Shown in pieces: positions 1,696-29,600 of a stretch of DNA of 64,000 nucleotides (the stretch's first letter is position 1; every line of letters starts with the position of its first letter). The notes beneath the pieces were generated by a model. It was not told the DNA's origin. It saw only the letters and a program-made list of their open reading frames with translations, and made no database searches. The position numbers and the translations under genes were made by a program. The DNA comes from a bacterium (GTDB taxonomy: Bacteria; Patescibacteriota; Minisyncoccia; Phycocordibacterales; JAKAEA01): contig JAJYGQ010000017.1 in the NCBI GenBank assembly GCA_021785065.1, forward strand, positions 925 to 64,924. The letters are read 5' to 3'.

Positions 1696-4182
1696 ATGCC
1701 CGATAAAGGTAAAAAAACAACCGTCGCAGTAGCGGCGGATTCTAATCCGCGAGTAAATGTTATTGATCGCAATATCTCTACCGAGATGCGCGAGGCTTTT
1801 ATCGACTATGCAATGTCGGTAATTACCGATCGCGCATTGCCCGACGTTCGTGATGGTTTAAAGCCAGTGCATCGTCGTATTCTCTACACCTTGCATGAGC
1901 TCGGCTTAACGGCTGGTGCTAAAACTCGTAAGTCGGCGAAAATCGTCGGTGACGTGACTGGTAACTATCACCCGCACGGCACCATTGCGGTGTACGATGC
2001 ATTGGTAAAGCTTGCTCAAGATTTTTCTATGCGTTATCCGCTCGTTATCGGTCAAGGTAACTTCGGTTCCATTGACGGCGATTCGGCTGCCGCTGATCGC
2101 TACACCGAGGCAAAAATGTCCCGGATAGCTAGCGAAATGTTGCGGGATATTGATAAGGAAACCGTTGATTTTCGTCCTAACTACGAAGGCACGCGTAAGG
2201 AGCCGAGCGTGCTTCCAGCCGCAGTCCCTAATCTTTTATTGAACGGCACACTTGGTATTGCTGTTGGTATGGCCACGAACGTGCCGCCGCACAATCTTAA
2301 TGAAATCACCGATGCGGCAGTGCATCTCATTGATAATACCGACGCTACCAACGAAGACCTGATGCAGTTTGTCCAAGGTCCTGATTTTCCCACTGGCGGC
2401 GTGATTTACGGCGAAAAAGACATTCACCATGCGTATGCTAATGGTAAAGGTTCTATTGTAGTGCGCGGCGAAGCGGAAATTATTGAAACGAAGTCGGGCA
2501 GCTACCAAATTATCATTACCTCTATTCCGTATCGCGTGAATAAAGCGTCGCTTATTCAGTCGATTGCTGATCATCATCGCGAGAAAAAACTCGAGGGTCT
2601 GCGCGAATTGCGTGATGAATCAACCGCCGATATTCGCATCGTTATCGAACTAAAAAGTGGAGCCAATCCGCAGGCGGTACTCAATTACCTCTATAAGCAC
2701 ACCCAGCTAGAAGAGCCGTTCCACCTCAACGTGGTGGCGCTTGTTGATGGTGTTCCCCAGACACTCTCCCTCAAAACTATTCTGCAGGAATTTCTTGTGC
2801 ATCGCGGTACGGTGATTCGTCGTCGCACTGAATTCGATCTTCGCCAAGCTCTCGACCGCGAGCACATTTTAATTGGTTTAAAGAAAGCCCTCGACCATAT
2901 CGACGAAATTATTAAGCTCATTAAAAAATCTAAAGATACACCAACGGCGCACGCTGGTTTGATGAAAGAGTTTAAATTTAGCGAGCGGCAAGCCACGGCA
3001 ATTTTGGATATGAAGCTGCAACGCCTGGCTGGTCTGGAGCGCAAGAAAATAGAAGATGAACTCACCGCGGTGCAAGCGCTCATTAAAGAGCTCAAGGAAA
3101 TTTTAGCTAACCCCAAAAAATTACTCGGCATTATTAAAACCGAACTTACTGAAATTAAGAAAAAATATGGCGACGAGCGGCGCACTAAGGTAGTTAAACA
3201 TGCGGCCAAGAGTTTTTCGGCGGAGGATTTGGTGGCCGACGAGGAGTCGGTGCTCGTGCTTACTGCCGGAGGCTATATCAAGCGCACCGATCCGAGCGAG
3301 TACCGTAAGCAGCGGCGCGGGGGAGTGGGAGTTGTTGATTTAGATACCAAAGAGGAAGATTTCGTTACGCACCTTGTCACTACTAATACGCACAGCGATC
3401 TACTCTTCTTTACTGATCGTGGCAAGGTCTACCAAATGAAAATGTATGAGATTCCGGAAGGGCGTCGAGCCACGAAAGGCAAGTCGATTATGAATTTTCT
3501 AGCCCTCGAGCAAGGGGAGCGGGTAACGTCTATTTTGCCGATGCCGAAAGAAACGAAAAAAGGTGACGCTCTCGGTGCCTTAAGCGTGCTTATGGTGACC
3601 CGTGATGGAGTGGCAAAAAAAACAGCCACGAAAGCGTTTGGCGATGTACGCCGCTCGGGCATTATTGCTATCAAGCTTGCAAGTGGCGATCAGCTCGTGT
3701 CTGCCGAATTTGTTGGCCGGGGAGATGACATTGTGCTCGCCACCGCAAAGGGGCAATCAATTCGTTTTAAAGAATCTGATGTGCGTGAGATGGGGCGGGC
3801 GGCGGGTGGGGTGACGGCAATGCGTCTTGATAAAGGTGATCAAATCATCAGTGCTGACGCCGTTAAAAAAGATCTTAAAAATCCTGCTCTGCTCGTCGTT
3901 ATGAAAAACGGTTACGGTAAAAAGACTGAGCTTGGTGAATACAAAGTGCAAAAGCGTGCCGGTTCCGGTATTAAAACCGCTCAAGTAACGAGTAAAACGG
4001 GCGACGTAATTGCCGCAAAAGTTGTTGCTGAAGGAGAAGATGAACTCGTAGCAATGTCAAAAAAGAGTCAGGTAATTCGCGTGGCTATTAATGAGATTCC
4101 CTCACTTGGTCGCCAAACCCAAGGCGTACGCATTATGAAGCTTCGTGAGGGCGATGCTATCGCTGCTGGCGTCATTTTGTAA
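1696..4182 (+). CDS. gyrA: DNA gyrase subunit A
   Basis: Translation carries the canonical GyrA motifs: [26 protein letters not shown], the active-site region, and the C-terminal beta-pinwheel repeats. 828 aa. Confidence 0.95.
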
Positions 4183-4751: not shown

Positions 4752-6080
4752 ATGCTGAGAAAAAAGAACACTAGCGGTATTGCAATGTTTCGCGTCATTT
4801 TACTCGTAGTATTCGGTGCTTTTATTGTAGCTGGAATTTTTTCTTTTGCTTTGTACCGTGGTGGCTCCTCAAGTCAGATGCCCACTATCATCATTTGGGG
4901 CACACTTGATCAAGGTACGATGAGTACACTCATTAACAAAGCAGCTGGCACAAAAGCAAATATCCAATATGTACAAAAAGATCCGACGACATTTAACAGT
5001 GATCTCGTTAATGCGGTAGCTGTTGGTACCGGTCCTGATGTTATTTTAGGTACCCAGGATCAAATTTTTTCAAACAGTAAATTACTCACTATTATTCCTT
5101 ATACCAGTTATCCGCAGCGTACGTTTCTCTCAACATTTATTCCTGAAGCTGATTTGTATTTAGAGTCACAAGGTCTTCTCGCGATTCCTATTGGTGTCGA
5201 TCCACTTATTATGTACTGGAACCGAGCACTCTTTTCTAATGCTGACATTGCTACGCCGCCGACCACGTGGGACCAACTTGTTTCGCTTGTACCCAAACTT
5301 ACCGTAGCCGATAAATCCTACAATATTAGCCAGAGTACAGTTGGTATGGGAGATTACGTGAATGTACAGAATGCACAAGCTATTCTCTCGCTGCTTATGC
5401 TGCAGGCCGGTAATCCTATTGTGAGTATTGATCCAAATGGCAATCTCGTAGCCGCAATTGGAGGAGGAAGCAGTGAGGCTACCGCTGCCGCAAACGCTCT
5501 CTCGTTCTACACACAATTTGCCGATCCCACCTCAGCGACATATAGCTGGAACCGGGCACTCTTGAATTCGCAAGATATGTTTATTGCTAATCAGCTTGCT
5601 ATATATTTTGGTTTTGCCAGTGAGTACAACACTCTTTCGCAGAAAAATCCTAATCTTGATTTTGATGTAGCGACGGTCCCGCAGTTTAGTAAAAATACTA
5701 ACGGCCAATTGGGCGGATCGGGACAATACACCACCTTCGGTAATCTCTACAGTTTTGCTATTCTTCGTCAGTCGCCCAATGCCGCCGCCGCTCTCACTGA
5801 TATTCTCACGCTCACCTCGCAAAACGCGGCGACATTATGGAATTCTTTTACGGGATTACCAGCCGCTCGACTCGATTCTCTAGCGGTTAATCCTGCCAAC
5901 CCAATTGAGCCAATTCTTAGTCAGTCGGCGTTATGGGCTCGTGGCTGGATTGATCCTAATCAAAGTGCAACGAGTCAAATTTTCCAGTCTATGGTAGATA
6001 GTGTTACGTCTGGTCAAGCGGGTCCTTCGCAAGCGGTAATTACTGCGCAAAGTGAACTTAGTACCGCTTTGCAACAATAG
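4752..6080 (+). CDS. Membrane-anchored extracellular solute-binding protein (ABC-type SBP family 1-like, probably sugar or oligosaccharide binding)
   Basis: The track ORF opens at a GTG at 4716, but the first ATG at 4752 lies directly after the preceding stop. It has an N-terminal TM helix, then GTGPDVILGTQDQIF and NPNLDFDVATVPQ segments typical of SBP_bac_1 proteins. No permease or ATPase gene is adjacent. Confidence 0.45.
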   Translation: MLRKKNTSGIAMFRVILLVVFGAFIVAGIFSFALYRGGSSSQMPTIIIWGTLDQGTMSTLINKAAGTKANIQYVQKDPTTFNSDLVNAVAVGTGPDVILGTQDQIFSNSKLLTIIPYTSYPQRTFLSTFIPEADLYLESQGLLAIPIGVDPLIMYWNRALFSNADIATPPTTWDQLVSLVPKLTVADKSYNISQSTVGMGDYVNVQNAQAILSLLMLQAGNPIVSIDPNGNLVAAIGGGSSEATAAANALSFYTQFADPTSATYSWNRALLNSQDMFIANQLAIYFGFASEYNTLSQKNPNLDFDVATVPQFSKNTNGQLGGSGQYTTFGNLYSFAILRQSPNAAAALTDILTLTSQNAATLWNSFTGLPAARLDSLAVNPANPIEPILSQSALWARGWIDPNQSATSQIFQSMVDSVTSGQAGPSQAVITAQSELSTALQQ

Positions 6081-6081
6081 T

Positions 6082-6573
6082 ATGAAAATTTCCATTAAAA
6101 AAATCACCCACATCACAGCGATCTTGCTTGTTTCGGGGATTATCGTAAGTGTTTCTGGTGTTGCGCTTTCGGTGATGGCTGCTCCACAGCCGCCGCTCAC
6201 AAGCGTTGGTGGTTTGGTGCCGTGTGGTAATGGTAGCGGCGCGCAATTAAGTAATAAAAATGGCACCACTAATTTTTATGCTACTGGTAATACTGCTTCA
6301 ACGACCGCTTGCGATTTCGCTGGCTTTGTTGATCTCGTTAAAAACGTTACCAACTTTCTTATTATCCTTTCGGCGCCAATTTTTGTTGGTATTATGATAT
6401 GGGCTGGCATTAAACTGCTTTTAGCACCTGCGAGTCAAGAACAAATTAAAAGAGTTAAGCAGGTTCTTTTTGATACGCTCATCGCCTTTATTATTATTCT
6501 TGCTGGTTGGCTTATTGTGCATGTGATAGCAACAGCACTCTTTAATTCGTCATTTAATATGTTTCAACCATAA
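6082..6573 (+). CDS. Small secreted two-helix membrane protein, VirB2/TrbC-like pilin family; paralog 1 of 5
   Basis: It has a signal peptide and a Cys pair (CGNG...C). Two C-terminal hydrophobic helices (IILSAPIFVGIMIWAGIKLLL and LIAFIIILAGWLIVHVIATALF) are separated by a charged loop (APASQEQIKRVKQ). The ATG at 6082 follows the upstream stop at 6078-6080. Confidence 0.45.
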   Translation: MKISIKKITHITAILLVSGIIVSVSGVALSVMAAPQPPLTSVGGLVPCGNGSGAQLSNKNGTTNFYATGNTASTTACDFAGFVDLVKNVTNFLIILSAPIFVGIMIWAGIKLLLAPASQEQIKRVKQVLFDTLIAFIIILAGWLIVHVIATALFNSSFNMFQP

Positions 6574-6578
6574 TTACT

Positions 6579-7061
6579 ATGATTCGTTATATTTCAAGAG
6601 GATATCTTATTTTTAATATTATTGCGGTGTTTGCGCTCTTTTTTGTTTCGGCGTTGCCGTTGTACCACGCCTCGGCAAATTCACTTCTCAATACCAACAC
6701 CACCCAAAGTCAAGCTGCCTCCTCAAATACAAACACGAGTGGTACGGGCATGGACCTCAATCCATTTAAGGGTGGAACGCTTTGTGACTTTTTAGTAACG
6801 TTACTCGACATTATTACAGAGATCGCGGCGATAGTGGGTGTGCTCGTGCTTATCGGTATTGGCTTTTACTACATACTGGCGCAGGGTAATAAAGAAAAAC
6901 TAGCGACGGCGCACCGTGCTCTTTTTGTAAGTATCATTGCTATCACATTACTTCTTGGCGCGTCTGTATTTGCTCATATTCTCATCACTACGGTTAACGC
7001 AGTTCTTGCGGCTGGCGGCGGCGGGTTTGCGAATCAATCAGCGCTGACGTGTTCACCGTAA
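6579..7061 (+). CDS. VirB2/TrbC-like pilin family protein; paralog 2
   Basis: Signal peptide. The layout CDFLVTLLDIITEIAAIVGVLVLIGIGFYYIL, loop AQGNKEKLATAHR, then ALFVSIIAITLLLGASVFAHIL resembles mature A. tumefaciens VirB2. Confidence 0.45.
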   Translation: MIRYISRGYLIFNIIAVFALFFVSALPLYHASANSLLNTNTTQSQAASSNTNTSGTGMDLNPFKGGTLCDFLVTLLDIITEIAAIVGVLVLIGIGFYYILAQGNKEKLATAHRALFVSIIAITLLLGASVFAHILITTVNAVLAAGGGGFANQSALTCSP

Positions 7062-7107
7062 ATTTTGCGAAGTATGTTATTATTAAAAAACCAAATAATT
7101 CCATAGT

Positions 7108-7521
7108 ATGACCAGCCTGCAACAACTCGTTGATTCACTTATAAAATTAGCAAATACTATAGTACCTCTTCTGCTTTCTGTTGCGGTTATTGTCTTTATT
7201 TGGGGAATAATTCGCTATCTCTGGATTCGTCCCGATAGTCCCGATGAACGAAAGAATCTTCGGAATTTTTTAATTATGGGGGTTATTGCTATTACGGTAA
7301 TTCTATCTATTTGGGGATTATCAACAATGCTTAAAAATACTCTTTTCCCCTCTGCGCCTTGTCCGGTCGGTGTAGCAGGCTGTGGATCGTCGGCCGCGAC
7401 ATCAGGTGGTCCTAGTAGTCCTAATAGTTCCAACAGTTCTAGTAATCCTTCCGGCGTTCAATATAATAACGGTACCTACTACCAGACACAGCCTACTTCT
7501 CCTTTAATACAAGGTGTGTAG
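7108..7521 (+). CDS. VirB2/TrbC-like pilin family protein; paralog 3
   Basis: Helix TIVPLLLSVAVIVFIWGIIRYLWI, loop RPDSPDERKNLR, then NFLIMGVIAITVILSIWG, plus a Gly/Ser/Asn-rich tail. Confidence 0.45.
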   Translation: MTSLQQLVDSLIKLANTIVPLLLSVAVIVFIWGIIRYLWIRPDSPDERKNLRNFLIMGVIAITVILSIWGLSTMLKNTLFPSAPCPVGVAGCGSSAATSGGPSSPNSSNSSSNPSGVQYNNGTYYQTQPTSPLIQGV

Positions 7522-7644
7522 TCGAAATTTGCCTTCAAAGATATCCACAATGCTAGCGATTTGCTTGCTTGCATTTACCAGAGGGCCCCGTATACTTAAA
7601 GTAAATAAAACGTCGTTATTTACACGGCCATTAATTTTAAAAAA

Positions 7645-8073
7645 ATGAGAAAAATTATTTCTTCCGTTGGGCTTATCGCAGGTGGTCTCGTTGCTGTAGC
7701 CGCACCGCTTGTAGCGTTTGGACAACAAAACAATATCGGCTCAGCAGGACAGGGCGCTCTCTACCAATTAAATGGTGTCGTGGGTTCAACGGGAAGTTTG
7801 GTGGCAACATCAAATAATGTCCTTAATATGGTAGTGGGACTCTTAATTACCCTTGCGGTCATTGTCTTTATTGTTAACGTCATTAGATTTGTCTTGAGTA
7901 AAAACGACGAAGAAGCAAGAAAGAATGCCAGAAAATACCTGATCTGGAGCGTTATTGCTATTGCGGTTATTATTGGACTTTTCGGAATTGCAAAACTTCT
8001 TTTGGCGACGTTTGGTATCAACGGTAATAATCTTCAGCAGTCCGATATTCCCACCACACCAATCTATCAGTAA
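7645..8073 (+). CDS. VirB2/TrbC-like pilin family protein; paralog 4
   Basis: Signal peptide. Helix VVGLLITLAVIVFIVNVIRFVL, loop SKNDEEARKNARK, then YLIWSVIAIAVIIGLFGIAKLLL. Confidence 0.45.
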   Translation: MRKIISSVGLIAGGLVAVAAPLVAFGQQNNIGSAGQGALYQLNGVVGSTGSLVATSNNVLNMVVGLLITLAVIVFIVNVIRFVLSKNDEEARKNARKYLIWSVIAIAVIIGLFGIAKLLLATFGINGNNLQQSDIPTTPIYQ

Positions 8074-8085
8074 TCTCCACCCGCG

Positions 8086-8439
8086 GTGAGCATCCCTCAA
8101 TCTTTGGCGGCTACAGGTGTTATTTCAGGAAGTCCTTATTACGCTGCTATACGTGATGATGTGGTAATGCCCATCATCTACCTGGCTTTTGCGGCGGCTC
8201 TACTTGTCTTTATTTGGGGAATGATTCGCTACCTTGTTGCGCTGCATAATGGAGCGGCAGATGAAAAACGTCAGGCAGGGCAGCGACATATGATTTGGGG
8301 CGCCATCGGCATCGCCATCATGATCTCTGTTTTTGGAATTATGCAATTTATTTGGGGCACACTGGCGAGTTTGCCGGGTGGAAGTCAGGGGTTTAATGGC
8401 CAAACAGCGACGCCGCCACCGGAAATCAACGGCTTGTAA
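8086..8439 (+). CDS. VirB2/TrbC-like pilin family protein; paralog 5
   Basis: Helix MPIIYLAFAAALLVFIWGMIRYLVA, loop LHNGAADEKRQAGQRH, then MIWGAIGIAIMISVFGIMQFIWG. It shares the IWG.IRYL motif with paralog 3. Confidence 0.45.
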   Translation: MSIPQSLAATGVISGSPYYAAIRDDVVMPIIYLAFAAALLVFIWGMIRYLVALHNGAADEKRQAGQRHMIWGAIGIAIMISVFGIMQFIWGTLASLPGGSQGFNGQTATPPPEINGL

Positions 8440-8479
8440 TTAAATTAGTTTTGTAAAATTAAAAATTGTCTATAAAAAA

Positions 8480-9508: not shown

Positions 9509-9591
9509 TGCCTGCCCCTTTTAAAAAACAAATCAAAGATCAATACACACCGGCGCGTATTATATAAAATCTATAAAGAAATGTCAAGAGG

Positions 9592-9674
9592 TGGGCGGGG
9601 AGGGACTTGAACCCTCAACCCCTTGCGGGACATGGTCCTAAGCCATGCGCGTCTGCCAATTTCGCCACCCGCCC
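9592..9674 (-). tRNA. tRNA-Leu (anticodon TAG)
   Basis: The reverse complement folds as a type II tRNA. The acceptor stem is gggcggg/cccgccc. The anticodon arm catgg-cttagga-ccatg gives TAG, with a long variable arm, the T-arm gaggg-ttcaagt-ccctc, and discriminator A. Confidence 0.9.
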
Positions 9675-9935: not shown

Positions 9936-12900
9936 ATGCCGGTTTTATTAAGGGTGCACATAATTATTATCTCTATGCAAAAATTTAAAAGTTACGTTGG
10001 GCAATTCTGTACGACCCATCGCCAGATAGCGAAAGGGTTAGCTTTTGCGTTTGTCACTGCGCTTTTAGCAACGGGCGGTTTCGCAGTGCATGCCGCATAT
10101 GCTGACTCAGCGACACTCGGCGTGACTCAAATTACGGCGGTGAAGACGTACGCTACTGCTGATGACACTTACGCTAATGGTTGGGAGTGGATATTCGACG
10201 TTACGGTTCCCAGCAACCAGACGCTGTTGCAGATGAAATTTGCTGACTGGACGAATGGTACGAGTGTTATTCCCGCCGCCAACAATATTCAATTTTATTC
10301 TCAGCAATCAACTAACGCTTCCGACGAAGCGCACGCTATTCCTATTACCGCTGCCGACACCTATAGCGGCATTATGTATATCAACCCCAACACTGATCTT
10401 AACGTCAATCAGGCTGGCCGACAGATTCAAATTGTTGTTGAAGCGCGTATTCCCACCGGTTCAACGGGCGGCTCATATTCAACAAGTTACGGCATTAACA
10501 CCACCGCGACCTCAACTATCTCTCTTAGTGATTTAACCCAGACATACGACTCTACGGCGAAGTCGGTGACAGTAACTACTGATCCATCGGGTTTGGCGAC
10601 GCAAGTCACCTACAATGGCTCAGCTACAGCACCAACTGCCGCTGGTACCTATACTGTTGATGCGGTAATAACCGATCCTAATTACACGGGCACTTCTACT
10701 GCGACATTGACTATTAATCCGGCGCAGGTGGCGGTGGTAGCAAATCCTCAAACGAAAGTGTACGACGGTTTGACTACAACCGATCCAGCGTTGACTTACA
10801 CAGCCACCCCAGCGCTCTTCGGTAGCGACACCTTCACAGGCGCGCTCACGCGTACTGCAGGAGAAGGCGTTGGTTCCTATCCCATAACTCAAGGCACACT
10901 CAAACTCGACAGTAACTACGTATTGAACTTTAGTCCGTCGACGTTCGTTATTACCGCCCAGCCTGCAAAAGTGACACTCGGCAACTTGAATCAAGAATAT
11001 GGTTCAACCACTCCGGTTACGGTCACGACAGATCCTTCAGGCCTTGCGACGAGTGTGACGTATAACGGCTCACCGACGGTGCCGACTAATGCGGGCAGTT
11101 ATACTGTTGTCGCAAAAATTACTGATCCTAATTACACGGGCAGCTCGACCGAGACACTCGTTGTTGCGCCGCGACCCATCACTGTTACCGCTACTACCGA
11201 CGACAAGATTTATGACGGCACGACTGCAGCAACTAGCACGCCAACTATCACTTCTGGATATCTCGTTGGTTCTGACACCGCAACACTGACTGAGGCTTTC
11301 CAAAATAAAGACGCGGGCACTGGCAAAACTCTTATCCCGAGCGCAACTATTAGCGATGGTAATGGCGGTGCCAACTACGCGGTTACTCTCGTAAACAATA
11401 CCACCGGCATTATTACATCTGCTCCTGCAACTATTTTAGCGACTGGCGTTGATAAAACATATGATGGCACAACGGCAGCGACAGTTAATTTGAAAGTGCT
11501 TGGTGCCGTTCCTACTGACAGTCTCTCGGCCACCGGCGATGCGGTCTTCGACGGTTCTAATGTTGGACCACACACTATTAATGTAACGAATATTGTGGTT
11601 TCTGGCACAGGCGTTACTTCAAACGATTATTCGTATAACACCTCAACATCTACTACAGCGACTATCAATCCAGCCTCGCTTACTATTACCGCCGATAATG
11701 AATCGAAGACATACGGCGACACCTACACATTTAACGGAACTGAATTTAACGCGACGGGTCTTATAAAAGGTACAAGTGACTCAGTGACATCGGCAACGCT
11801 GACTAGTGCTGGCACTGTAGCAAGCGCGGCTTTTGGAACCTACCCGATCAATATCAGTAATGTTGTTGGTACGGGATTAAGCAATTACAACATTAGCTAC
11901 AATCCAGGAACGTTGACGGTGGGCACCAAGACCGTTACTGCTACCATTACCGCCGAAAGTAAACAGTACGATGGCACTAACACGGCTGACATCACAAGTT
12001 GTACGGTAAACGGCGCGGTAAATGGCGACAATCTTACTTGCACGGCTTCAAATGGAACCTTTAGTGATAAGAATGTTGGTAATGGTAAGACTGTTACTGC
12101 CGATGTTACGCTTGTTGGCACAAATGCCGGTAACTACACCCTGACGTCTCCCGTTACTACAACAGCGAATATTACTGCAGCACCTCTCACGGTAACTGCT
12201 GTGACTGATAACAAAATTTACGACAGCACAGTTGCGGCAACGGGCACGCCATCTATTACCGCTGGCTCTCTTCAGGGTACCGACACCGCAACATTTAGCG
12301 AAGTATTCAAAACAAAAGACGTTGGCAGTAACAAGACACTCATTCCATCCATTTCTATCGATGGTGGGACAGGTAATAGTAACTACAACATTACCTACGT
12401 AAACGATACGACAGGTGTCATCACCGCGCGCCCGCTCTTAGTGACCGCAAAAGGTGTTGATAAAGTCTATGACGGCACCACAGACGCCACAGTAACTCTC
12501 TCTGACAATCGCATTGCTGGTGACAAGCTTACCGACAATTACACCACGGCAACATTTGCCAGTCCGAATGTTGGCAACAATATACCAATTACCGTGACAG
12601 GTATTAGTATTAGCGGTACTGATGCGGGTAACTACACGCTGACCGACACTTCTACAACAACGGCCGCCAATATTACCCCAGCGAAACTCACGATTTTGCC
12701 GTACGGTGTCCAGAAAGTTTACGGTGATGCGATCACGCTGCCAGTACTTCCTCCAGGATTCTTCTCACAAGGTTTACAGGGAACTGATAAGGTGACCTCA
12801 GTAGACCTAACCAGCGCCGGCATCACTTCAACGGCCATCGTTGGAAAATATGACATCTTTGCTAAAGATGCAGTGATTTCGCCTTCCACAAGCTTTGCTA

Positions 12901-14306
12901 ATTACGACATTCAATATGCGACGAATACACTTACAGTAACTAAAGCGCCACTTCTCGGAAAAATTCTCGCATCTAATAAGACGTATGACGGCACCACTGA
13001 TGCCAGCACCACCTGTACCTTTACGGGAATTCTCAATGGCGACAACGTAACCTGCACCACTTCAAACGCTGCATTTGCAACTCGAAACGTTAGTAGCACC
13101 ACGGTGACCGCCGATCTCAATCTCTCTGGTCCTGATGCAGGCAATTACGGAATTAATCCAACAGCAACCACCAACGCTTCTATTAATCCGCTCGCCCTTA
13201 CGGTGACTGCTGTACCGAACACTAAAATTTATGATGGCACCACTGCCGCCGCCGCTCTTCCGACGTTCACGCCCACAATACTCGGTCAGGGCGACACTCC
13301 CGACTTCATAGAGACCTATGACACGGCGACCGCTGGTATAAACAAAACACTAACACCAAGTGGGGTAGTGAATGACGGCAATAATGGTAAAAACTACACG
13401 TACAAATATGTTTCTGTGTCTACTGGCGTTATCTCGAAAGCTAATCAAACTGTTTCTTTCGTTAAATATCCAAGCGGTACTATTAGCGGAAATTCCTTTA
13501 CCGTTAGCGCGACATCAACGTCAGATTTGCCGGTTACCTTTACTGGTGGCACGTCGGGTGTTTGCAGCGTCAACGCCGATGGTACAGTAAATGTTCTAGG
13601 ATCTGGACAGTGTAATGTTATTGCCGAGCAGGCGGGTAATGCTGATTACAATCCCGCATCAACCAATATGACGTTTAGCGTGGTGTATAACGTAACACCT
13701 ACCACAATCACTATTTCATCTGTCTCTCCATCCGCGGCCGCCACCGGCTCTAACGTCACCATCAACTGGACTTCGACGAATGCTCCCACCGGGTCAGCGG
13801 TAGCGCTCACCCTCTTCAATAGTAGCGGTAACGAAGTGGGTGTCTTAACTAAAGACGCCGATAGTACTGGAAGCTATGTTTGGAGCATTCCTACTTGTGT
13901 GTCAGGTCCATCGGGCCCGGGTAGCGGTGGCATTATTCCTATTACCTCCTGTACGCCTACCGATAGCAGCGGTGTCTACGAGACGCCCGTGGGCAACTAC
14001 ACTATTGTAGCCAAGCTCTATACACCGAAAGGTGGCTATGGTGATGGTATGATTGCCCCTTCACCTTCTCTCCAAACTCTCGCGACTTCAGCAGCAATGC
14101 CGTTTACGGTGATACCTGCTCCGACCACTAGGATTGAGTCGTCGCTTAGTTTTGCTGCGCCGTTAATGGTTTCCACCTCAACATCAACGCCATCAACGCC
14201 ACCAACACCAACTTCAACTCCTCCGACTATCGATACTACTTCTACAACCACACCCACAACCGCACCCACAACAACAAGCACAAGCACCTCGACGCCAACG
14301 AAATAG
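9936..14306 (+). CDS. Giant secreted surface protein or adhesin with about ten tandem YDG/MBG-type Ig-like repeats and a Thr/Pro-rich C-terminus
   Basis: 1456 aa. The signal peptide (LAFAFVTALLATGGFAVHAAYA) sits best if the start is the Met at 9975. The unit K(V/I/T)YDGTT...Y.I..G.L....NY.I......LT(I/V) recurs, for example KVYDGLTTTD, KIYDGTTAATSTP, KTYDGTTAATVNL, KQYDGTNTAD, KVYDGTTDATV, KTYDGTTDAST and KIYDGTTAAAALP. The tail reads STSTSTPSTPPTPTSTPPTIDTTSTTTPTT. Confidence 0.8.
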   Translation: MPVLLRVHIIIISMQKFKSYVGQFCTTHRQIAKGLAFAFVTALLATGGFAVHAAYADSATLGVTQITAVKTYATADDTYANGWEWIFDVTVPSNQTLLQMKFADWTNGTSVIPAANNIQFYSQQSTNASDEAHAIPITAADTYSGIMYINPNTDLNVNQAGRQIQIVVEARIPTGSTGGSYSTSYGINTTATSTISLSDLTQTYDSTAKSVTVTTDPSGLATQVTYNGSATAPTAAGTYTVDAVITDPNYTGTSTATLTINPAQVAVVANPQTKVYDGLTTTDPALTYTATPALFGSDTFTGALTRTAGEGVGSYPITQGTLKLDSNYVLNFSPSTFVITAQPAKVTLGNLNQEYGSTTPVTVTTDPSGLATSVTYNGSPTVPTNAGSYTVVAKITDPNYTGSSTETLVVAPRPITVTATTDDKIYDGTTAATSTPTITSGYLVGSDTATLTEAFQNKDAGTGKTLIPSATISDGNGGANYAVTLVNNTTGIITSAPATILATGVDKTYDGTTAATVNLKVLGAVPTDSLSATGDAVFDGSNVGPHTINVTNIVVSGTGVTSNDYSYNTSTSTTATINPASLTITADNESKTYGDTYTFNGTEFNATGLIKGTSDSVTSATLTSAGTVASAAFGTYPINISNVVGTGLSNYNISYNPGTLTVGTKTVTATITAESKQYDGTNTADITSCTVNGAVNGDNLTCTASNGTFSDKNVGNGKTVTADVTLVGTNAGNYTLTSPVTTTANITAAPLTVTAVTDNKIYDSTVAATGTPSITAGSLQGTDTATFSEVFKTKDVGSNKTLIPSISIDGGTGNSNYNITYVNDTTGVITARPLLVTAKGVDKVYDGTTDATVTLSDNRIAGDKLTDNYTTATFASPNVGNNIPITVTGISISGTDAGNYTLTDTSTTTAANITPAKLTILPYGVQKVYGDAITLPVLPPGFFSQGLQGTDKVTSVDLTSAGITSTAIVGKYDIFAKDAVISPSTSFANYDIQYATNTLTVTKAPLLGKILASNKTYDGTTDASTTCTFTGILNGDNVTCTTSNAAFATRNVSSTTVTADLNLSGPDAGNYGINPTATTNASINPLALTVTAVPNTKIYDGTTAAAALPTFTPTILGQGDTPDFIETYDTATAGINKTLTPSGVVNDGNNGKNYTYKYVSVSTGVISKANQTVSFVKYPSGTISGNSFTVSATSTSDLPVTFTGGTSGVCSVNADGTVNVLGSGQCNVIAEQAGNADYNPASTNMTFSVVYNVTPTTITISSVSPSAAATGSNVTINWTSTNAPTGSAVALTLFNSSGNEVGVLTKDADSTGSYVWSIPTCVSGPSGPGSGGIIPITSCTPTDSSGVYETPVGNYTIVAKLYTPKGGYGDGMIAPSPSLQTLATSAAMPFTVIPAPTTRIESSLSFAAPLMVSTSTSTPSTPPTPTSTPPTIDTTSTTTPTTAPTTTSTSTSTPTK
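10441..13400 (+). repeat. Intragenic tandem coding repeats (about 270-nt units, diverged) inside the adhesin gene
   Basis: DNA motifs such as acggcacgactgcagc, tacgacggcacaacggcagcgaca and tatgacggcaccactgatgcc recur at roughly 90-codon spacing. Confidence 0.5.
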
Positions 14307-14328: not shown

Positions 14329-14946
14329 ATGAACATGAACACTTTACTAAAAATCTCATTTTTTTCGGCCGCGACAATTGGTCTTTTGACCTTTAGCCTG
14401 CAGGCCTCCGCGTCTTCTGTAGGGGGAACTCTAACGCCTGGTGGCGGTCTTAGTGGTGTTGGTGTCACCGGTACGGTGGTTACGCCCCCTATCGCCAATC
14501 CTAGTGCTGGTGTCTATACCTCGACGCAAAATGTCACCCTGACGGCCAGCGGCGCCTCGAGCATTCACTTTACGACTGATGGATCCTCACCAACTTGCTC
14601 TACTGGTACGGTTTATTCGAGCGCTATTTCGGTAAGCGTCTCGCAGGTAATAGAAGCTATTTCCTGCTATCCGGGTAACGCCTCATCGACGGTTGCCTCG
14701 TATTTGTACGCGATTAATCCGGGTTCAACCGGTGGTGGCGGGGGTACAACAGGCAGTCCAATTTCGTCACCTAATATCGGCACCACGGGTGGTACAAGTG
14801 GCAGCCAAATCATAGGTATTGCCGATTTTATTCTGCTTATGGAAAACTGGGGTCAAACTGGTCTCGGTAATCCGGCGGACTTCAATAAAGATGGTGCGGT
14901 GAACATCGGCGACTTTATTTGGCTTATGAGTAATTGGAATCAATAA
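14329..14946 (+). CDS. Secreted protein with a CHB_HEX_C-like (Fn3/Ig-like) domain and a C-terminal dockerin-like module
   Basis: Signal peptide. VYTSTQNVTLTASGASSIHFTTDGSSPTCSTGTVYSSAISVS matches the chitobiase/beta-hexosaminidase C-terminal domain signature. The C-terminus reads ADFILLMENWGQTGLGNPADFNKDGAVNIGDFIWLMSNW, a D.N.DG.VN..D calcium loop with a flanking helix, as in dockerin. Confidence 0.6.
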   Translation: MNMNTLLKISFFSAATIGLLTFSLQASASSVGGTLTPGGGLSGVGVTGTVVTPPIANPSAGVYTSTQNVTLTASGASSIHFTTDGSSPTCSTGTVYSSAISVSVSQVIEAISCYPGNASSTVASYLYAINPGSTGGGGGTTGSPISSPNIGTTGGTSGSQIIGIADFILLMENWGQTGLGNPADFNKDGAVNIGDFIWLMSNWNQ

Positions 14947-14951
14947 AATTT

Positions 14952-15677
14952 ATGAATACTAAAAAAATTATTTTTGCTGGCGTAATTACAACTCTCGGCG
15001 TGTTTGCTGTTGCTCTTCCGGCTTTCGCGGCAACTACTGCGTCATTTGTGCCAACTCCTATCAAAGTGGCTACGGGACAGCAATTCAACGTGGTGGTTAT
15101 GGTTAACCCGCAAGGCGTAAAAAATTACGCGGAAAAAGTTGAGGTTGATTATCCTGCCAATCTTCTCCAGGTCATCTCGTTTACACCGGGTAATAGTTGG
15201 ATGACGCTTCAGCAGCCTGGTTATGACTCTATAAACAACAACACGGGCGTGATGATTAAAACAGCTGGCTACCCGACAGGATTTTCATCACAAACACTTT
15301 TCGGTACCATTTTATTTACCGCTAAAAAAGCTGGCAGCGGCACTATCGCTATCGATAATCAATCGATTGCGTTTAAAGCGGGTGCTCAAACTACGACGCT
15401 TACGGGCACTCCGGCGCCGTTTACTATTAGCGTTGCTACTGTACCCGCGGCAAGCACAACTCCCGCTGCTCTTGCTCCGGTTTCTACGGTTAACGGTCAG
15501 GCGATTGCCACCGCTACAACTCCCGCTGGTCTCGCTTCTACCGCTAATTCACAACTTGCGGCCGCTGCCGCAAACGCCGGTGGCGTAGCCTACTGGGTCT
15601 GGATCCTGCTCGTCATCGCGATTATTCTCGTTATTGTACTCTTCATTCTCTACCGCAACCGAAAGGGAAAGATGTAA
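14952..15677 (+). CDS. Membrane-anchored cohesin-domain protein
   Basis: The track ORF starts at a TTG at 14934; the ATG at 14952 gives MNTKKIIFAGVITTLGVFAVALPAFA, a signal peptide. The stretch IKVATGQQFNVVVMVNPQGVKNYAEKVEVDYPANLLQV...LFGTILFTAKKAGSGTIAIDNQSIAF follows the cohesin beta-sandwich pattern (F.V.V......V.YD...L, then LATI.F.A). Then a Thr/Ala linker and the C-terminal TM anchor VAYWVWILLVIAIILVIVLFILYRNRKGKM. Confidence 0.55.
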   Translation: MNTKKIIFAGVITTLGVFAVALPAFAATTASFVPTPIKVATGQQFNVVVMVNPQGVKNYAEKVEVDYPANLLQVISFTPGNSWMTLQQPGYDSINNNTGVMIKTAGYPTGFSSQTLFGTILFTAKKAGSGTIAIDNQSIAFKAGAQTTTLTGTPAPFTISVATVPAASTTPAALAPVSTVNGQAIATATTPAGLASTANSQLAAAAANAGGVAYWVWILLVIAIILVIVLFILYRNRKGKM

Positions 15678-15685
15678 AAATATAG

Positions 15686-15758
15686 TCCGCCCAGCAGGAT
15701 TCGAACCTGCGACCGTTCGCTTAAGAGGCGACTGCTCTACCAACTGAGCTATGGGCGG
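15686..15758 (-). tRNA. tRNA-Lys (anticodon CTT)
   Basis: Reverse complement ccgcccatagctcagttggtagagcagtcgcctcttaagcgaacggtcgcaggttcgaatcctgctgggcgga. The D-arm is gctc-agttggta-gagc, the anticodon loop ctCTTaa, the T-arm gcagg-ttcgaat-cctgc, and the 7-bp acceptor is fully paired. Confidence 0.9.
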
Positions 15759-15799
15759 TGCAGATATGTAGCCTAACAATTTTTCGGCGATTTCGCAAT

Positions 15800-16150
15800 T
15801 TATTTTGCGAGCGTGCCAGGGGCGATGGAGGCGTTTGGTTCAAGAATAGAAAAATTGCCCGCGTCATCAGACACTGCAAAGAGCATGCCGTTTGATTGGT
15901 GACCGCGGATGGTGCGCGGCTCGAGATTGGTGACGAACATGCAGGTGCGGCCAATGAGCGTGGTAGGGTCGGGAAAATAAGCGGCAATACCGGAAACAAT
16001 TTGCCGCGGTGTAGGCTGACCAGCTTCGTCATGCTCGGCAAAATCAACACTAAGCCGCAAGAGCTTATCAGTGTCGGGAATTTTTTCGGCCGTTAAAATT
16101 TTGCCGGCGCGAATTTCTATTTTTTTGAAATCGTCAAGGGTGATAGTCAT
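15800..16150 (-). CDS. csaA: tRNA-binding protein, CsaA/Trbp111 (EMAP/Myf domain) family
   Basis: MTITLDDFKKIEIRAGKILTAEKIPDTDKLLRLSVDFAE...RQIVSGIAAYF matches the YgjH/CsaA pattern ([31 protein letters not shown]). Confidence 0.75.
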   Translation of the reverse strand: MTITLDDFKKIEIRAGKILTAEKIPDTDKLLRLSVDFAEHDEAGQPTPRQIVSGIAAYFPDPTTLIGRTCMFVTNLEPRTIRGHQSNGMLFAVSDDAGNFSILEPNASIAPGTLAK

Positions 16151-26684: not shown

Positions 26685-29600
26685 ATGGAATCTCCAGAAA
26701 AACCTTCTTCAGCAGATAATCTAAAAGATGAAGTATCCCAGGTTGAACAAGACAAGGAGATAGATAAAAAAAGTCTGGAACTTTCTCCTACGAGTGGGCA
26801 ACTAATTGGTAAGGAAGTTATAAAGCATGAATATGCCCGCGCAGATTGGAAAAACAGGCGAGAATTGTCGGATACTTTTCGTACGGGGACCGATGTGATT
26901 GATAGATTAGTGCAGGAGTATTTGGACCTGCATCCTGAGGCGAAATCAGAGGACATCGAAACAGCTAAGAAAAAAGAAACTGGCTTTGTTACTGTCTACT
27001 ATTCTCCCAAGGTGCAATCGTATCTTGAGGAAAAGTTACGAGTATCGTTGCCACCTAGTAACTGGGTACCATTCCCAATTCTTGTTGAAAAGCTGGGTAT
27101 TTCTGCTCCTACTGTTGTCAAATTAGTGAATGCTTATTCTAAAGATTTTCCGAAGATTGCTCAGACAGAAACCGGTACATACAAAGAAGAGAAGGGGCAT
27201 AGGCGGTTATTTTATTCACCTCTATTTGCTGAGTTGCTAAAAAAAGAGTTTGATAAATACCCGGCCGCACCTCAGAATTGGAAGACCCAGATGCAAATGG
27301 CCTCTGAAGAGGGTGTTGATTTCGCACGCCTAGATAAATTTTTAAAAGAGTATTCCATGCAACATTCCCAGGAAGAACATAAGGGTATGTTTCGAAATGG
27401 GCGCAATCAAGTATATGAGCATTATTCACCGCAGGTAGCTGCGTATATACATCAAGAATTACAACGGTACGAAGACACCCCTGAAGGATGGATAAATAGA
27501 AACAAACTCGCTAAAAGACTCAATGTTGTCGATGCGACCGTCCAAAGAATTATCGATAGCTACCTAGCAACCCACCCTAATTCGAAGGATGTTAAAAAAG
27601 CAAAGAGTGATAGGGGGCTGGTTCTTAATGTTTTCTCGCCCGTTATCCAAGAATATGTCGCGGCTACACTGGCTGCTTCTTTAGAAAGTCGCAATAAAGA
27701 GAAAGAACCAGAACCTTCCGCGCCAGAAGACTGGAAGATGGTCAGTGATATTGCAAGTGAGTTAAAAGTAAGCAGAGACATAGTAACAAAAACCATCAAA
27801 GAATATTTTCAGACTCATTCTGAGGAAGGTAGTAAGAAAAAATATCCTGCGACAACTTCTTGGAAGACAGGAAGTATTGTTACTAGACCCGTTGTTCATT
27901 ATTCACCAGCTGTTGTTGATTATTGTCGAACGGTAATTGAAGGCTTAAAAAGCAATATGGCTCAAGAAGGATGGTTAACAGTAAGCGATCTTCAGGAAGT
28001 TCTCGGAATATCGTGGACGACTATAAATTCGTTAATAAAAAAATACCAGACACAAAGCACGGACCCCCAGCTCCCTAAGAGACGTAGAAATCCAAGGGGA
28101 AAGATGTGGAAATATTATCCACCGGTAGTTGTAGAATGGTTAAAAAACGAGGTGGCAAAACATCCCCGTGCACCTAAAGACTGGAAAATTCTTGGCGAGC
28201 TCTCAGAGCAATTTAGTGTCTCCCAGGATACTCTCCGGCGTTTAGTCGAAAGACAGGCAGCGTTAAATCCTGACAGTGTCGTGATCAAAGAACTCAGGAA
28301 TGATCGAGGTGTTGTGTGCACCTTTTACTCACCAGAGACCATATTGCAACTCAAACAGTCTCTTGAACAGCATACTAAAGGGAAAAGTGAGCTTGAGAAC
28401 AAGTTAACAGGTCTCCTTGCAAACCCTGAAAAGGAGGAAGGTCGCAAATTCCGTGAAATGCTCGGACTCTTCGGTCCTTCTAACTTTCTAGATATACTCT
28501 ATGTCTTGCATCCAGAGTTTAGGGATCTTCCGGTAGACCATGTTAAGGGGAAATTAACAGAATATCTTGGTAACTACCTGTTAACTGCTATACCATTTTC
28601 AGTAGATGCTCTCGAGAAAAACCTACCGTCCTTAAAACAGGAAAACCTAAGACGCGGTCTTGCCGAGGTTATAAAGGGTGATTGTCTCAATTTTTATTTG
28701 CTTGAAAAAAAGCAATCGCCTCTTAGGGATGATCTTGAGATATTTCAATTGTATTTTGACGATTTAACTTCAAGGACAGCGAATAACCAAAACCTCGACC
28801 TCAATCAAGTAGTAGCAGAAGTCAGGGAATATTATCAATCAGTTACAGGTTCGTGGGTGAAACCGACAAGGATCATTGAATCCCTAAGCGCTGATAGGCC
28901 GTTCCCCGACATTTATCAGCAAATTAATCGGCAGGAAATCAAAGATAAGAAACGTCTTCTTATTGCTGACGAAATGGGGGTAGGTAAAAGCGCTTCCGTT
29001 ATTCTTGCTAAAGAATCATTGGGAGTAAAAACCGCTCTTGCTGTAGTTCCTAGTAATGTTGTTGCTACATGGGAAAAATATCTTTCTGATACTGTTGGTG
29101 ATGATGGTCGACAGCTAGGCTATTTTAAGCCCGGCCAAGCACCGAGGGTGCTTACTATACGTAGCTCTGACGATCTTATGCGTCTTAACGATGGCTATGA
29201 TTACATTCTTATTTCACAAGAACGTTTGAATGATGCGAACGCTGAGGAGCTTCAAAAACTTGATTACGGAATGCTTATTGTAGATGAAGTCCATAAACTT
29301 AAAAATGTTCGTGATGGTAAGCGAGCAAATCATCTACTAAACCTAGCCGAAAAAATAGAAGGAGATGATAAGTACTTAGTAATGCTTTCGGGTACACCTG
29401 TGCCAAATAAAGTTGAAGATGTTGCAATGCTGCTTAAACTTTTGCATCCCGACCGTTTTGCCCAGGAAGATAGTAAGCGTCTCGTAAGCGCCATTTTGAA
29501 TGGCAGTATTGTCAATATACGTTCTTTGCTCATACCGCACATGCAGATGAAAGGCTTGGCTGAACACGTAGAAATGCCAAACCTTACAGAGGCTACCATT

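Follow-up and report, generated by a model that had tools for sequence, protein, structure and literature searches.

Cohesins and dockerins are combined in the cellulosome, in which a scaffoldin with several cohesins is joined by dockerin-bearing carbohydrate-active enzymes (CAZymes). In a second arrangement, represented by Clostridium thermocellum OlpA and OlpC and Ruminococcus flavefaciens ScaE, a single cohesin resides on a cell-bound protein and tethers dockerin proteins directly to the surface. Proteins of this type are anchored through surface-layer homology (SLH) modules or a sortase LPXTG signal. The two modules are also used outside cellulose degradation, a field reviewed by Peer et al. 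(2009; FEMS Microbiol Lett 291:1). Examples are the Clostridium perfringens cohesins (2vo8, 2jh2, and 2w1n) and FIVAR–dockerin protein (2jnk/2ozn), and the Archaeoglobus fulgidus cohesin (2xdh). In C. perfringens, the modules occur on large secreted enzymes and join these enzymes to each other. The canonical type I dockerin (PF00404) is a C-terminal module of ~50–60 amino acids (aa) composed of two segments, each consisting of an F-hand calcium loop (DxNxDGxxxxxD) and a helix. The Patescibacteria, or candidate phyla radiation (CPR), represent a large share of bacterial diversity, and for most of them a life attached to other cells is assumed; to our knowledge, little has been learned of how their adhesins and enzymes are fixed to the envelope. 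In the 64-kb stretch of Patescibacteria DNA analyzed here (the window), two adjacent genes on the forward strand, gene 1 (14329–14946) and gene 2 (14952–15677), probably encode a dockerin and a cohesin that form a cognate pair, by which a secreted protein is tethered at the cell surface.

Both open reading frames (ORFs), and the peptides quoted from them in the initial annotation, are present as described. The stop codon of gene 1 is separated from the start codon of gene 2 by 5 nucleotides (nt); an alternative TTG start of gene 2 at 14934 is also open, and the homologues use the ATG at 14952. A hidden Markov model (HMM) scan of the window finds one dockerin and one cohesin, so the locus does not encode a scaffold with several cohesins. 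With respect to display, the "mini scaffold for surface display" proposed in the initial annotation is retained and is supported by the conserved pairing described below, but not with respect to the scaffold, as the locus encodes a 1:1 pair of anchor and cargo. As for the view that the organism is unlikely to be cellulolytic, it belongs to the Patescibacteria, and nothing in the window suggests cellulolysis.

The recurrence of the pair in related genomes is extensive. One genome per GTDB species was scanned with the cohesin alignment, yielding 49 loci (designated by L and a number) that are almost all labelled Patescibacteria, Parcubacteria, Paceibacterota, or related candidate phyla, and HMMs built for the dockerin, cohesin, and CHB domains were run on the six-frame ORFs of all loci. 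Leaving out three loci at a contig edge (L013, L040, and L056) and one that is N-masked (L047), a dockerin-ending ORF lies immediately upstream of the cohesin–transmembrane ORF in 43 of the 45 assessable loci, the two exceptions being a truncated cohesin (L054) and a true orphan cohesin that is intact (L042). All dockerin matches in ~600 kb of flanking sequence sit in such cassettes, each immediately upstream of a cohesin gene, with one exception in which a dockerin gene is followed by another dockerin gene before the single cohesin gene of the cassette (L041:5215–8696). A Parcubacteria locus contains two tandem cassettes ~2.3 kb apart (L053:7286–8756 and L053:11093–14904), the dockerins of which are 43% identical and the cohesins 31% identical; this locus and L041 would be useful as natural tests of pair specificity. 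An apparent dockerin–cohesin fusion ORF in L048 is an artefact, in which an N-masked stretch was translated as X.

The proteins that carry the dockerin differ widely, and the position of the module is constant: it is always found at the extreme C-terminus of a cargo of ~115 to 1478 aa, and in 42 of 42 paired cargo proteins it ends a secreted modular protein behind a linker, as it does in gene 1. The cargo includes a YDG (×11)/MBG/HYR adhesin (L024), an S8 subtilase (L025), beta-helix/NosD proteins (L030 and L039), a BNR/sortilin protein (L034), an ice-binding-like protein (L051), a DUF5018 protein (L041), and proteins with Big_2/Big_4 (L011), MBG_2/Big_5 (L015), immunoglobulin (Ig)/HYR/Big_3 (L017), or SpaA_2 (L050) domains, Ig-repeat proteins being part of this range; no glycoside-hydrolase catalytic domain was found among the cargoes. 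On the cohesin side, every protein of the family has one cohesin, and in the related loci almost every complete cohesin protein ends in a transmembrane helix with a basic tail. Clustered at 50% identity, the family found by an exhaustive profile search comprises at least 529 clusters with E ≤ 1e-30, and 832 when the limit is E ≤ 1e-10, almost all of 230–270 aa, and a search of the whole database with the dockerin-only profile returned short fragments only, from which no census of cargo was obtained. The gene order of a large Ig-repeat surface protein, a CHB–dockerin protein, and a cohesin–transmembrane protein is repeated on the contigs of homologues with different flanking genes, from which it follows that the pair moves as a unit; the presence of the same unit between unrelated genes in other genomes suggests that the cassette relocates. 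The pair in the window thus belongs to a type of 1:1 cassette, a cargo dockerin with a cohesin anchor, that is widespread and apparently undescribed; a literature search on dockerins and cohesins in Patescibacteria, CPR, and Parcubacteria found no description of it in a body of papers that omitted most subscription articles, and an earlier description is possible.

Both genes are under purifying selection. Compared with the orthologues in L058, the closest orthologous locus, the ratio of nonsynonymous to synonymous substitution rates (dN/dS) is ~0.07–0.12 for both (dS is close to saturation), much as for RbfA and IF-2, and is ~0.09 for the dockerin module and ~0.09 for the cohesin module. As a separate observation from the same comparison, the 3′ end of the cohesin gene (~125 nt), the adjoining tRNA-Lys, and ~40 nt more are 98% identical at the DNA level (window ~15553–15800 and L058 ~2800–3050), and dS is 0.05 in the transmembrane and tail codons of gene 2 versus ~1–2 elsewhere in both genes; this tract could be the result of recombination anchored on the tRNA, or of constraint at the nucleotide level.

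The adjacency of the two genes could, in principle, reflect co-expression only. In that case the modules would be true homologues of cohesins and dockerins, with the dockerin directed at a glycan or protein of the host or prey, or at a cohesin encoded elsewhere, and with the membrane-bound cohesin capturing other ligands. Non-cellulosomal dockerins of Omnitrophota that have no known cohesin partners have been proposed as possible adhesins (PMC10066038), one essential dockerin-domain protein of a Saccharibacterium has been suggested to target host glycans (PMC10633639), and the orphan cohesin of L042 shows that an intact copy can occur with no dockerin neighbor. However, the adjacency persists in the assessable loci despite differing cargoes and flanks, all detected dockerins are found in cassettes, and the paralogous cassettes of L053 have diverged in both modules; the 1:1 arrangement is also what a dedicated partner would predict. 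Co-expression without binding is accordingly regarded as improbable, and the two products are taken further here as a cognate pair.

The initial annotation had assigned a signal peptide, a cohesin-like beta-sandwich, and a C-terminal transmembrane anchor to gene 2, and the analysis agrees with all three assignments. The 33 homologues of gene 2 share one architecture, in which a signal peptide is followed by a ~140-aa domain, a low-complexity stalk, a transmembrane helix, and a basic tail; the AATT junction at the signal peptide is nearly invariant, the motifs KTAGYPGG and FGTIxFxAKK are invariant in the family, and the stalk varies in length. The AlphaFold2 (AF2) model built on the alignment of these homologues shows a signal-like helix at the N-terminus, and has a predicted local distance difference test score (pLDDT) mostly above 90 over approximately residues 30–165. 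When this model was compared with the PDB using Foldseek, the best 50 matches were all cohesins, comprising types I, II, and III and non-cellulosomal representatives, with a probability of 1.00 and E-values down to 9e-10. The target-normalized TM-scores are 0.80 for 2vo8 and 0.77–0.78 for 2jh2, both from C. perfringens, and 0.76 for 2xdh from Archaeoglobus, all of which are non-cellulosomal cohesins, and the anchoring cohesins of OlpA, OlpC, and ScaE are also among the matches. The beta-sandwich is thus not the generic Ig or invasin fold that had been named as the outcome contradicting the cohesin assignment.

The C-terminus of gene 2 consists of a hydrophobic helix, with a maximum Kyte–Doolittle value of 3.45 over 19 residues, followed by the basic tail; it reads ...NAGGVAYWVWILL...YRNRKGKM, and an LPXTG-type motif is absent from it. 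Among the related loci, the sequence LGTG[NS] occurs directly before the C-terminal helix in the cohesin proteins of L019, L021, L033, L035, L037–L040, L047, L053, L055, and L057, and is absent from the window copy; together with the helix and the basic tail, this gives a layout like that of a sorting signal. Gene 2 could accordingly end in a tripartite sorting signal cut by a sortase- or exosortase-like enzyme, with the cohesin attached covalently to the wall as in R. flavefaciens ScaE, an arrangement that would leave dockerin-based display unchanged. The position of the helix and the Arg/Lys tail at the extreme C-terminus, the LGTG[NS] of this subset, and a conserved Q-x-A-A ~10 residues upstream of the helix in other homologues would fit such a signal, but the window copy has no LPXTG-type motif, no NCBIfam sorting-domain model matches gene 2, and the genes examined, which cover the window in part only, yielded no sortase. 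Covalent attachment of gene 2 thus seems quite unlikely, and a transmembrane anchor is the preferred reading of its C-terminus.

Gene 1 encodes a secreted protein, in which the CHB_HEX_C-like domain of the initial annotation is present; the Pfam CHB_HEX_C_1 match (E 4e-12) spans residues 58–123, and the gene 1 model matches Ig/Fn3-like modules in Foldseek, such as one of an Akkermansia glycosidase. At its C-terminus, gene 1 has a module best read as a dockerin of two repeats in which one calcium site has decayed. It had been described as a single dockerin repeat, but the helices of both repeats are present in the AF2 model, and only loop 1 has decayed. The calcium ligands of loop 2 are D184, N186, D188, N192, and D195, whereas the five corresponding positions of loop 1 are occupied by G, S, S, G, and D, and one calcium site is lost. 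The two segments are identical at 9 of 16 residues, as counted by eye. Among the 48 close homologues in an end-to-end alignment, ~21 share the loss of loop 1 and the rest keep both loops; the family consensus of the duplicated C-terminal segment is DxNxDGKVDILDFxxLMxNWG ... ADFNxDGKVDIxDFxxLMxNWT. Searches of the PDB with profiles of the gene 1 family and of the dockerin only, from 38 loci, rank solved dockerins first (2y3n_B, 4fl4_A, 5lxv_B, 2jnk_A, 5nrk_B, 1daq, and 3ul4_B). Dockerin_1 matches 28 of the 48 homologues at E < 0.01, with a best E-value of 4.2e-11, at the homologous position, and cargo proteins of other loci exceed its cut-off, for example in L017 (45.2 bits) and L053 (31.6 bits). 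The DxNxDG loop is accordingly read as the second half of a two-repeat dockerin rather than as an isolated EF-hand-like motif, the outcome that the initial annotation had named as contradicting its assignment.

Several observations weigh against the assignment of a cognate dockerin–cohesin pair. The window copies of both modules fall below the Pfam cut-offs: gene 2 scores 22.6 bits against Cohesin (PF00963; E 1.3e-4, profile positions 9–126 of 139), for which the cut-off is 24.1, and gene 1 scores 12.8 bits against Dockerin_1 (PF00404; E 0.15, repeat 2 only), for which the cut-off is 22.9 bits, with a weak match to NCBIfam dockerin_GC (E 0.018). The cohesin family profile matched no cohesin among PDB sequences, its best match being a lambda tail protein (E 0.03); a sequence profile alone is insufficient for calling the cohesin, which is why the structure search was needed. 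The Foldseek search with the gene 1 model matched the Ig-like part only and left the dockerin unmatched, as a dockerin of 45 residues is too small for it. Calmodulin-type EF-hands score nearly as well as dockerins against the dockerin profiles (E ~1e-3 to 1e-4), which is expected for F-hand loops, and the loss of four of the five ligand positions of loop 1 means that affinity or binding mode may depart from that of canonical dockerins. Finally, the co-variation of dockerin and cohesin distances over 42 pairs (Mantel r 0.46, a value reached in 0 of 2000 permutations), which counts in favor of the pair, is confounded by the shared descent of adjacent genes. With respect to the Pfam scores, evidence at the family level is strong: Cohesin matches 5 of the 33 gene 2 homologues at E < 0.01 (best 6.1e-8), and three homologues carry precomputed PF00963 matches; the gene 2 match is borderline for the window copy and significant for the family. 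On the side of gene 1, the family evidence is given by the Dockerin_1 matches of the homologues. That the labels are over-interpreted, with a generic EF-hand-type calcium-binding or structural motif in gene 1 and a generic Ig-like domain in gene 2, is highly improbable, since the scores below the gathering thresholds, the calmodulins among the profile matches, the EF-hand Pfam models matched by several gene 1 homologues, and the weak matches of some cohesin-family members to the Ig-like families HYDIN_VesB_CFA65-like_Ig and fn3_5 are set against 50 top structural matches that include no other beta-sandwich family, the first rank of solved dockerins in the PDB, features specific to dockerins (a tandem of ~22-residue segments joined by a short linker and placed at the very C-terminus of extracellular proteins with unrelated architectures), and a conserved pairing that is itself the hallmark of the system.

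With the domain identities, the architecture, the tight operon-like linkage, the conserved pairing, and the purifying selection established, we infer that the two products bind each other physically in a calcium-dependent manner, with the following membrane topology. The gene 2 product would be exported by the Sec pathway and held in the membrane by its C-terminal transmembrane helix, so that the basic tail would face the cytoplasm and the single cohesin domain would lie outside on a flexible stalk ~45 residues long. The dockerin at the C-terminus of the secreted gene 1 product is predicted to bind this cohesin through one intact calcium site and two conserved helices, and the CHB_HEX_C domain of gene 1 would thereby be displayed at the surface.

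The gene that precedes the pair encodes the giant adhesin noted in the initial annotation, a 1456-aa ORF at 9936–14306 that ends 22 nt before the start of gene 1. It is composed of a signal-like N-terminal segment, a module designated here as module X, nine YDG, two MBG_3, and five MBG_2 repeats, and a C-terminal tail rich in Thr, Ser, and Pro. The dockerin and cohesin HMMs do not match this ORF, and it has no obvious anchor; as it has no dockerin, any link between the adhesin and the pair must be indirect. That the adhesin and gene 1 are a single split gene was rejected, because gene 1 has its own signal peptide, which is kept in 48 of 48 homologues. In all CHB-type loci for which upstream sequence is available, the small dockerin gene begins a few nucleotides after the end of a large ORF (388–1644 aa) of MBG/YDG/Ig-repeat type that lacks a dockerin. 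The C-termini of these upstream adhesins are unrelated, and no conserved C-terminal module was found in them. A second subfamily of small dockerin proteins (L019, L033, L037, and L053) has an FPHxFYG...GKYGG domain in place of CHB_HEX_C, and each of its genes is preceded by one for a large dockerin-less protein ending in ...GYWVxxN.

Module X offers a possible link between the adhesin and the anchored pair. In a jackhmmer search (E 1e-29 to 1e-74), it is confined to dockerin-less proteins encoded upstream of small dockerin genes, at 15 loci, where it is usually N-terminal and sometimes C-terminal (other copies include L003:4975–5418, L010:6666–7079, and L052:6239–6646). It has no Pfam match and no convincing sequence match in the PDB, where lysozymes and a putative cell-adhesion protein are the best at E ~0.04; the possibility that it is a second cohesin was rejected on the basis of this PDB result and an hhalign probability of 0.3%. 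The small dockerin proteins at module X loci share a peptide directly after the signal-peptide cleavage site, A|SE[VI]TG[TN]L[ST]TG, which is present whether the protein has a CHB domain, another domain, or none; the mature dockerin protein of L035 (L035:2884–3294) consists of this peptide, a Gly linker, and the dockerin only, and the peptide is also found in L022 (L022:7521–7955). The SE[VI]TG[TN]L motif and an upstream module X occur together in 14 of 14 loci, neither occurs in 29 loci, and module X alone occurs in one frameshifted assembly. In a complementary pattern, the giant L024 cargo protein, which has its own dockerin and the same kind of YDG/MBG repeats as the giant ORF of the window, is without module X, suggesting the small protein as an adaptor. 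The small dockerin protein may therefore link the module X adhesin to the cohesin anchor, a proposal that we put forward tentatively. On this extension for the subtype, Patescibacteria would have a modular, operon-encoded display system, here with three parts: module X of the adhesin might be caught by the mature N-terminal peptide of the adaptor, perhaps through strand complementation, and the dockerin of the adaptor by the cohesin anchor, giving a chain of adhesin, adaptor, cohesin anchor, and membrane that we consider conceivable and somewhat doubtful. Two points count against the adaptor: the co-occurrence of motif and module X is a lead rather than a test, as the regular expression was written after inspection of the data and the loci are related by descent, and the window copy of the peptide (14413–14475, gene 1 residues 29–49) is degenerate (SSVGGTLTPGG...) and fast-evolving in its clade (dN/dS ~0.26), which weakens the idea for this copy.

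The adhesin, dockerin, and cohesin genes form a three-gene unit flanked by tRNA-Leu and tRNA-Lys (Table 1). A scan for promoters and terminators returned nothing beyond chance level, and an Rfam scan found tRNAs only. A few kilobases upstream of the adhesin operon lies a cluster of small T4SS_pilin (PF18895) paralogues (ORFs 6052–6573, 7108–7521, and 7645–8073; cluster span given as 6052–8073), to which the L001 gene calls add a further small ORF near 8170–8440. Elsewhere in the window, the ORF 26685–31316 on the forward strand encodes a 1543-aa protein in which helix-turn-helix domains are combined with an SNF2/helicase core and, at the C-terminus, a methyltransferase domain.

Table 1. Features of the adhesin–dockerin–cohesin unit and the flanking tRNA genes; positions are those of the 64-kb window.
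Feature	Position	Strand	Extent	Basis or description
tRNA-Leu	9590–9674	−		upstream of adhesin gene
Giant adhesin-like ORF	9936–14306	+	1456 aa from first ATG	gene callers: start 9975, 1443 aa
Module X of adhesin	10086–10535	+	adhesin residues 51–200, ~140 aa	motifs GWxW...KFADW...GRQIQ...SYSTSYG
Gene 1 (dockerin protein)	14329–14946	+	205 aa	ORF
Gene 1 signal peptide	14329–14412	+	residues 1–28, MNMNTLLKISFFSAATIGLLTFSLQASA	n-region, hydrophobic core, AxA pattern; AF2 helix 6–22
Gene 1 mature N-terminal peptide	14413–14499	+	residues 29–57	disordered in monomer model, pLDDT 53–67
Gene 1 CHB_HEX_C_1 / Fn3_assoc beta-sandwich	14500–14700	+	residues 58–124	Pfam E 4e-12 and 3e-8; pLDDT >95
Gene 1 Gly-rich disordered linker		+	residues 133–158	precedes dockerin
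Gene 1 dockerin module	14803–14943	+	residues 159–205	last 47 residues
Dockerin repeat 1			degenerate calcium loop GTSGSQIIGIAD, then helix in IADFILLMENWGQ	AF2 helix 164–172, pLDDT >90
Dockerin repeat 2	14878–14913 (loop)		canonical loop DFNKDGAVNIGD, D184–D195, then helix in IGDFIWLMSNWNQ	AF2 helix 193–201, pLDDT >90
Gene 2 (cohesin–transmembrane protein)	14952–15677	+	241 aa counted from ATG	ORF
Gene 2 signal peptide	14952–15029	+	residues 1–26, ...LPAFA|ATTASF	AF2 helix 3–20
Gene 2 cohesin-fold beta-sandwich	15030–15446	+	residues 27–165	Pfam, AF2, Foldseek
Gene 2 Ala/Thr/Pro-rich disordered stalk	15447–15584	+	residues 166–211	pLDDT <50 for 177–211
Gene 2 C-terminal transmembrane helix, basic tail RNRKGKM, and stop	15585–15677	+	transmembrane residues ~212–234	AF2 helix 214–238
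tRNA-Lys	15685–15758	−		directly beyond gene 2

The occurrence of the same pairing beside many different cargoes suggests a general way for Patescibacteria to hang proteins on their surface. A conserved cassette would provide a genomic rule for listing surface-displayed proteins, namely an ORF that ends in this dockerin with the cohesin gene next to it, and would supply many natural, possibly orthogonal, small cohesin–dockerin pairs for protein engineering. If the link through module X is true, it would represent a new protein–protein coupling module and a starting point for understanding how the host-attachment proteins of ultra-small episymbiotic bacteria are mounted, and the anchoring of giant CPR adhesins would become directly testable.

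Compared with the described systems, the cassette would take cohesin–dockerin biology into a membrane-anchored format with 1:1 pairing, linked genes, and cargo other than CAZymes. The C. perfringens and A. fulgidus modules resemble it in being used outside cellulose degradation, and the likeness extends to the modules themselves, as the cassette dockerin profile matches the C. perfringens dockerin 2jnk, and 2vo8, 2jh2, and 2xdh give the highest target TM-scores (0.76–0.80) with gene 2; in contrast, these pairs are not known to have a dedicated single-cohesin protein with a transmembrane anchor encoded beside the cargo, and no description of a conserved two-gene cassette was found for them. The gene 1 dockerin shares with type I dockerins the C-terminal position, the two segments, and an internal symmetry that would allow a dual binding mode, but loop 1 of the window clade lacks the calcium ligands, and the helix signature DFxxLMxNW[GT] differs from the clostridial pattern. 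The cassette dockerins have hydrophobic residues where C. thermocellum dockerins have the Ser–Thr recognition pair. Unlike a cellulosome with its multi-cohesin scaffoldin and CAZymes, the cassette has one cohesin per protein and a cargo of adhesin-like, protease, and beta-helix proteins. In function it is closest to the non-cellulosomal pairs above and to OlpA, OlpC, and ScaE; the cohesins of the latter three proteins are among the top structural matches of gene 2 (3ul4_A, 4dh2_A, and 2zf9). However, whereas these three use SLH or sortase anchors and serve many dockerin-bearing CAZymes encoded genome-wide, gene 2 would be anchored by a C-terminal transmembrane helix with a basic tail, and the cohesin gene of the cassette directly follows a single dockerin gene, with non-cellulolytic cargo and a host among the Patescibacteria. 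The cassette would thus act like an anchoring cohesin; it is not a cellulosome.

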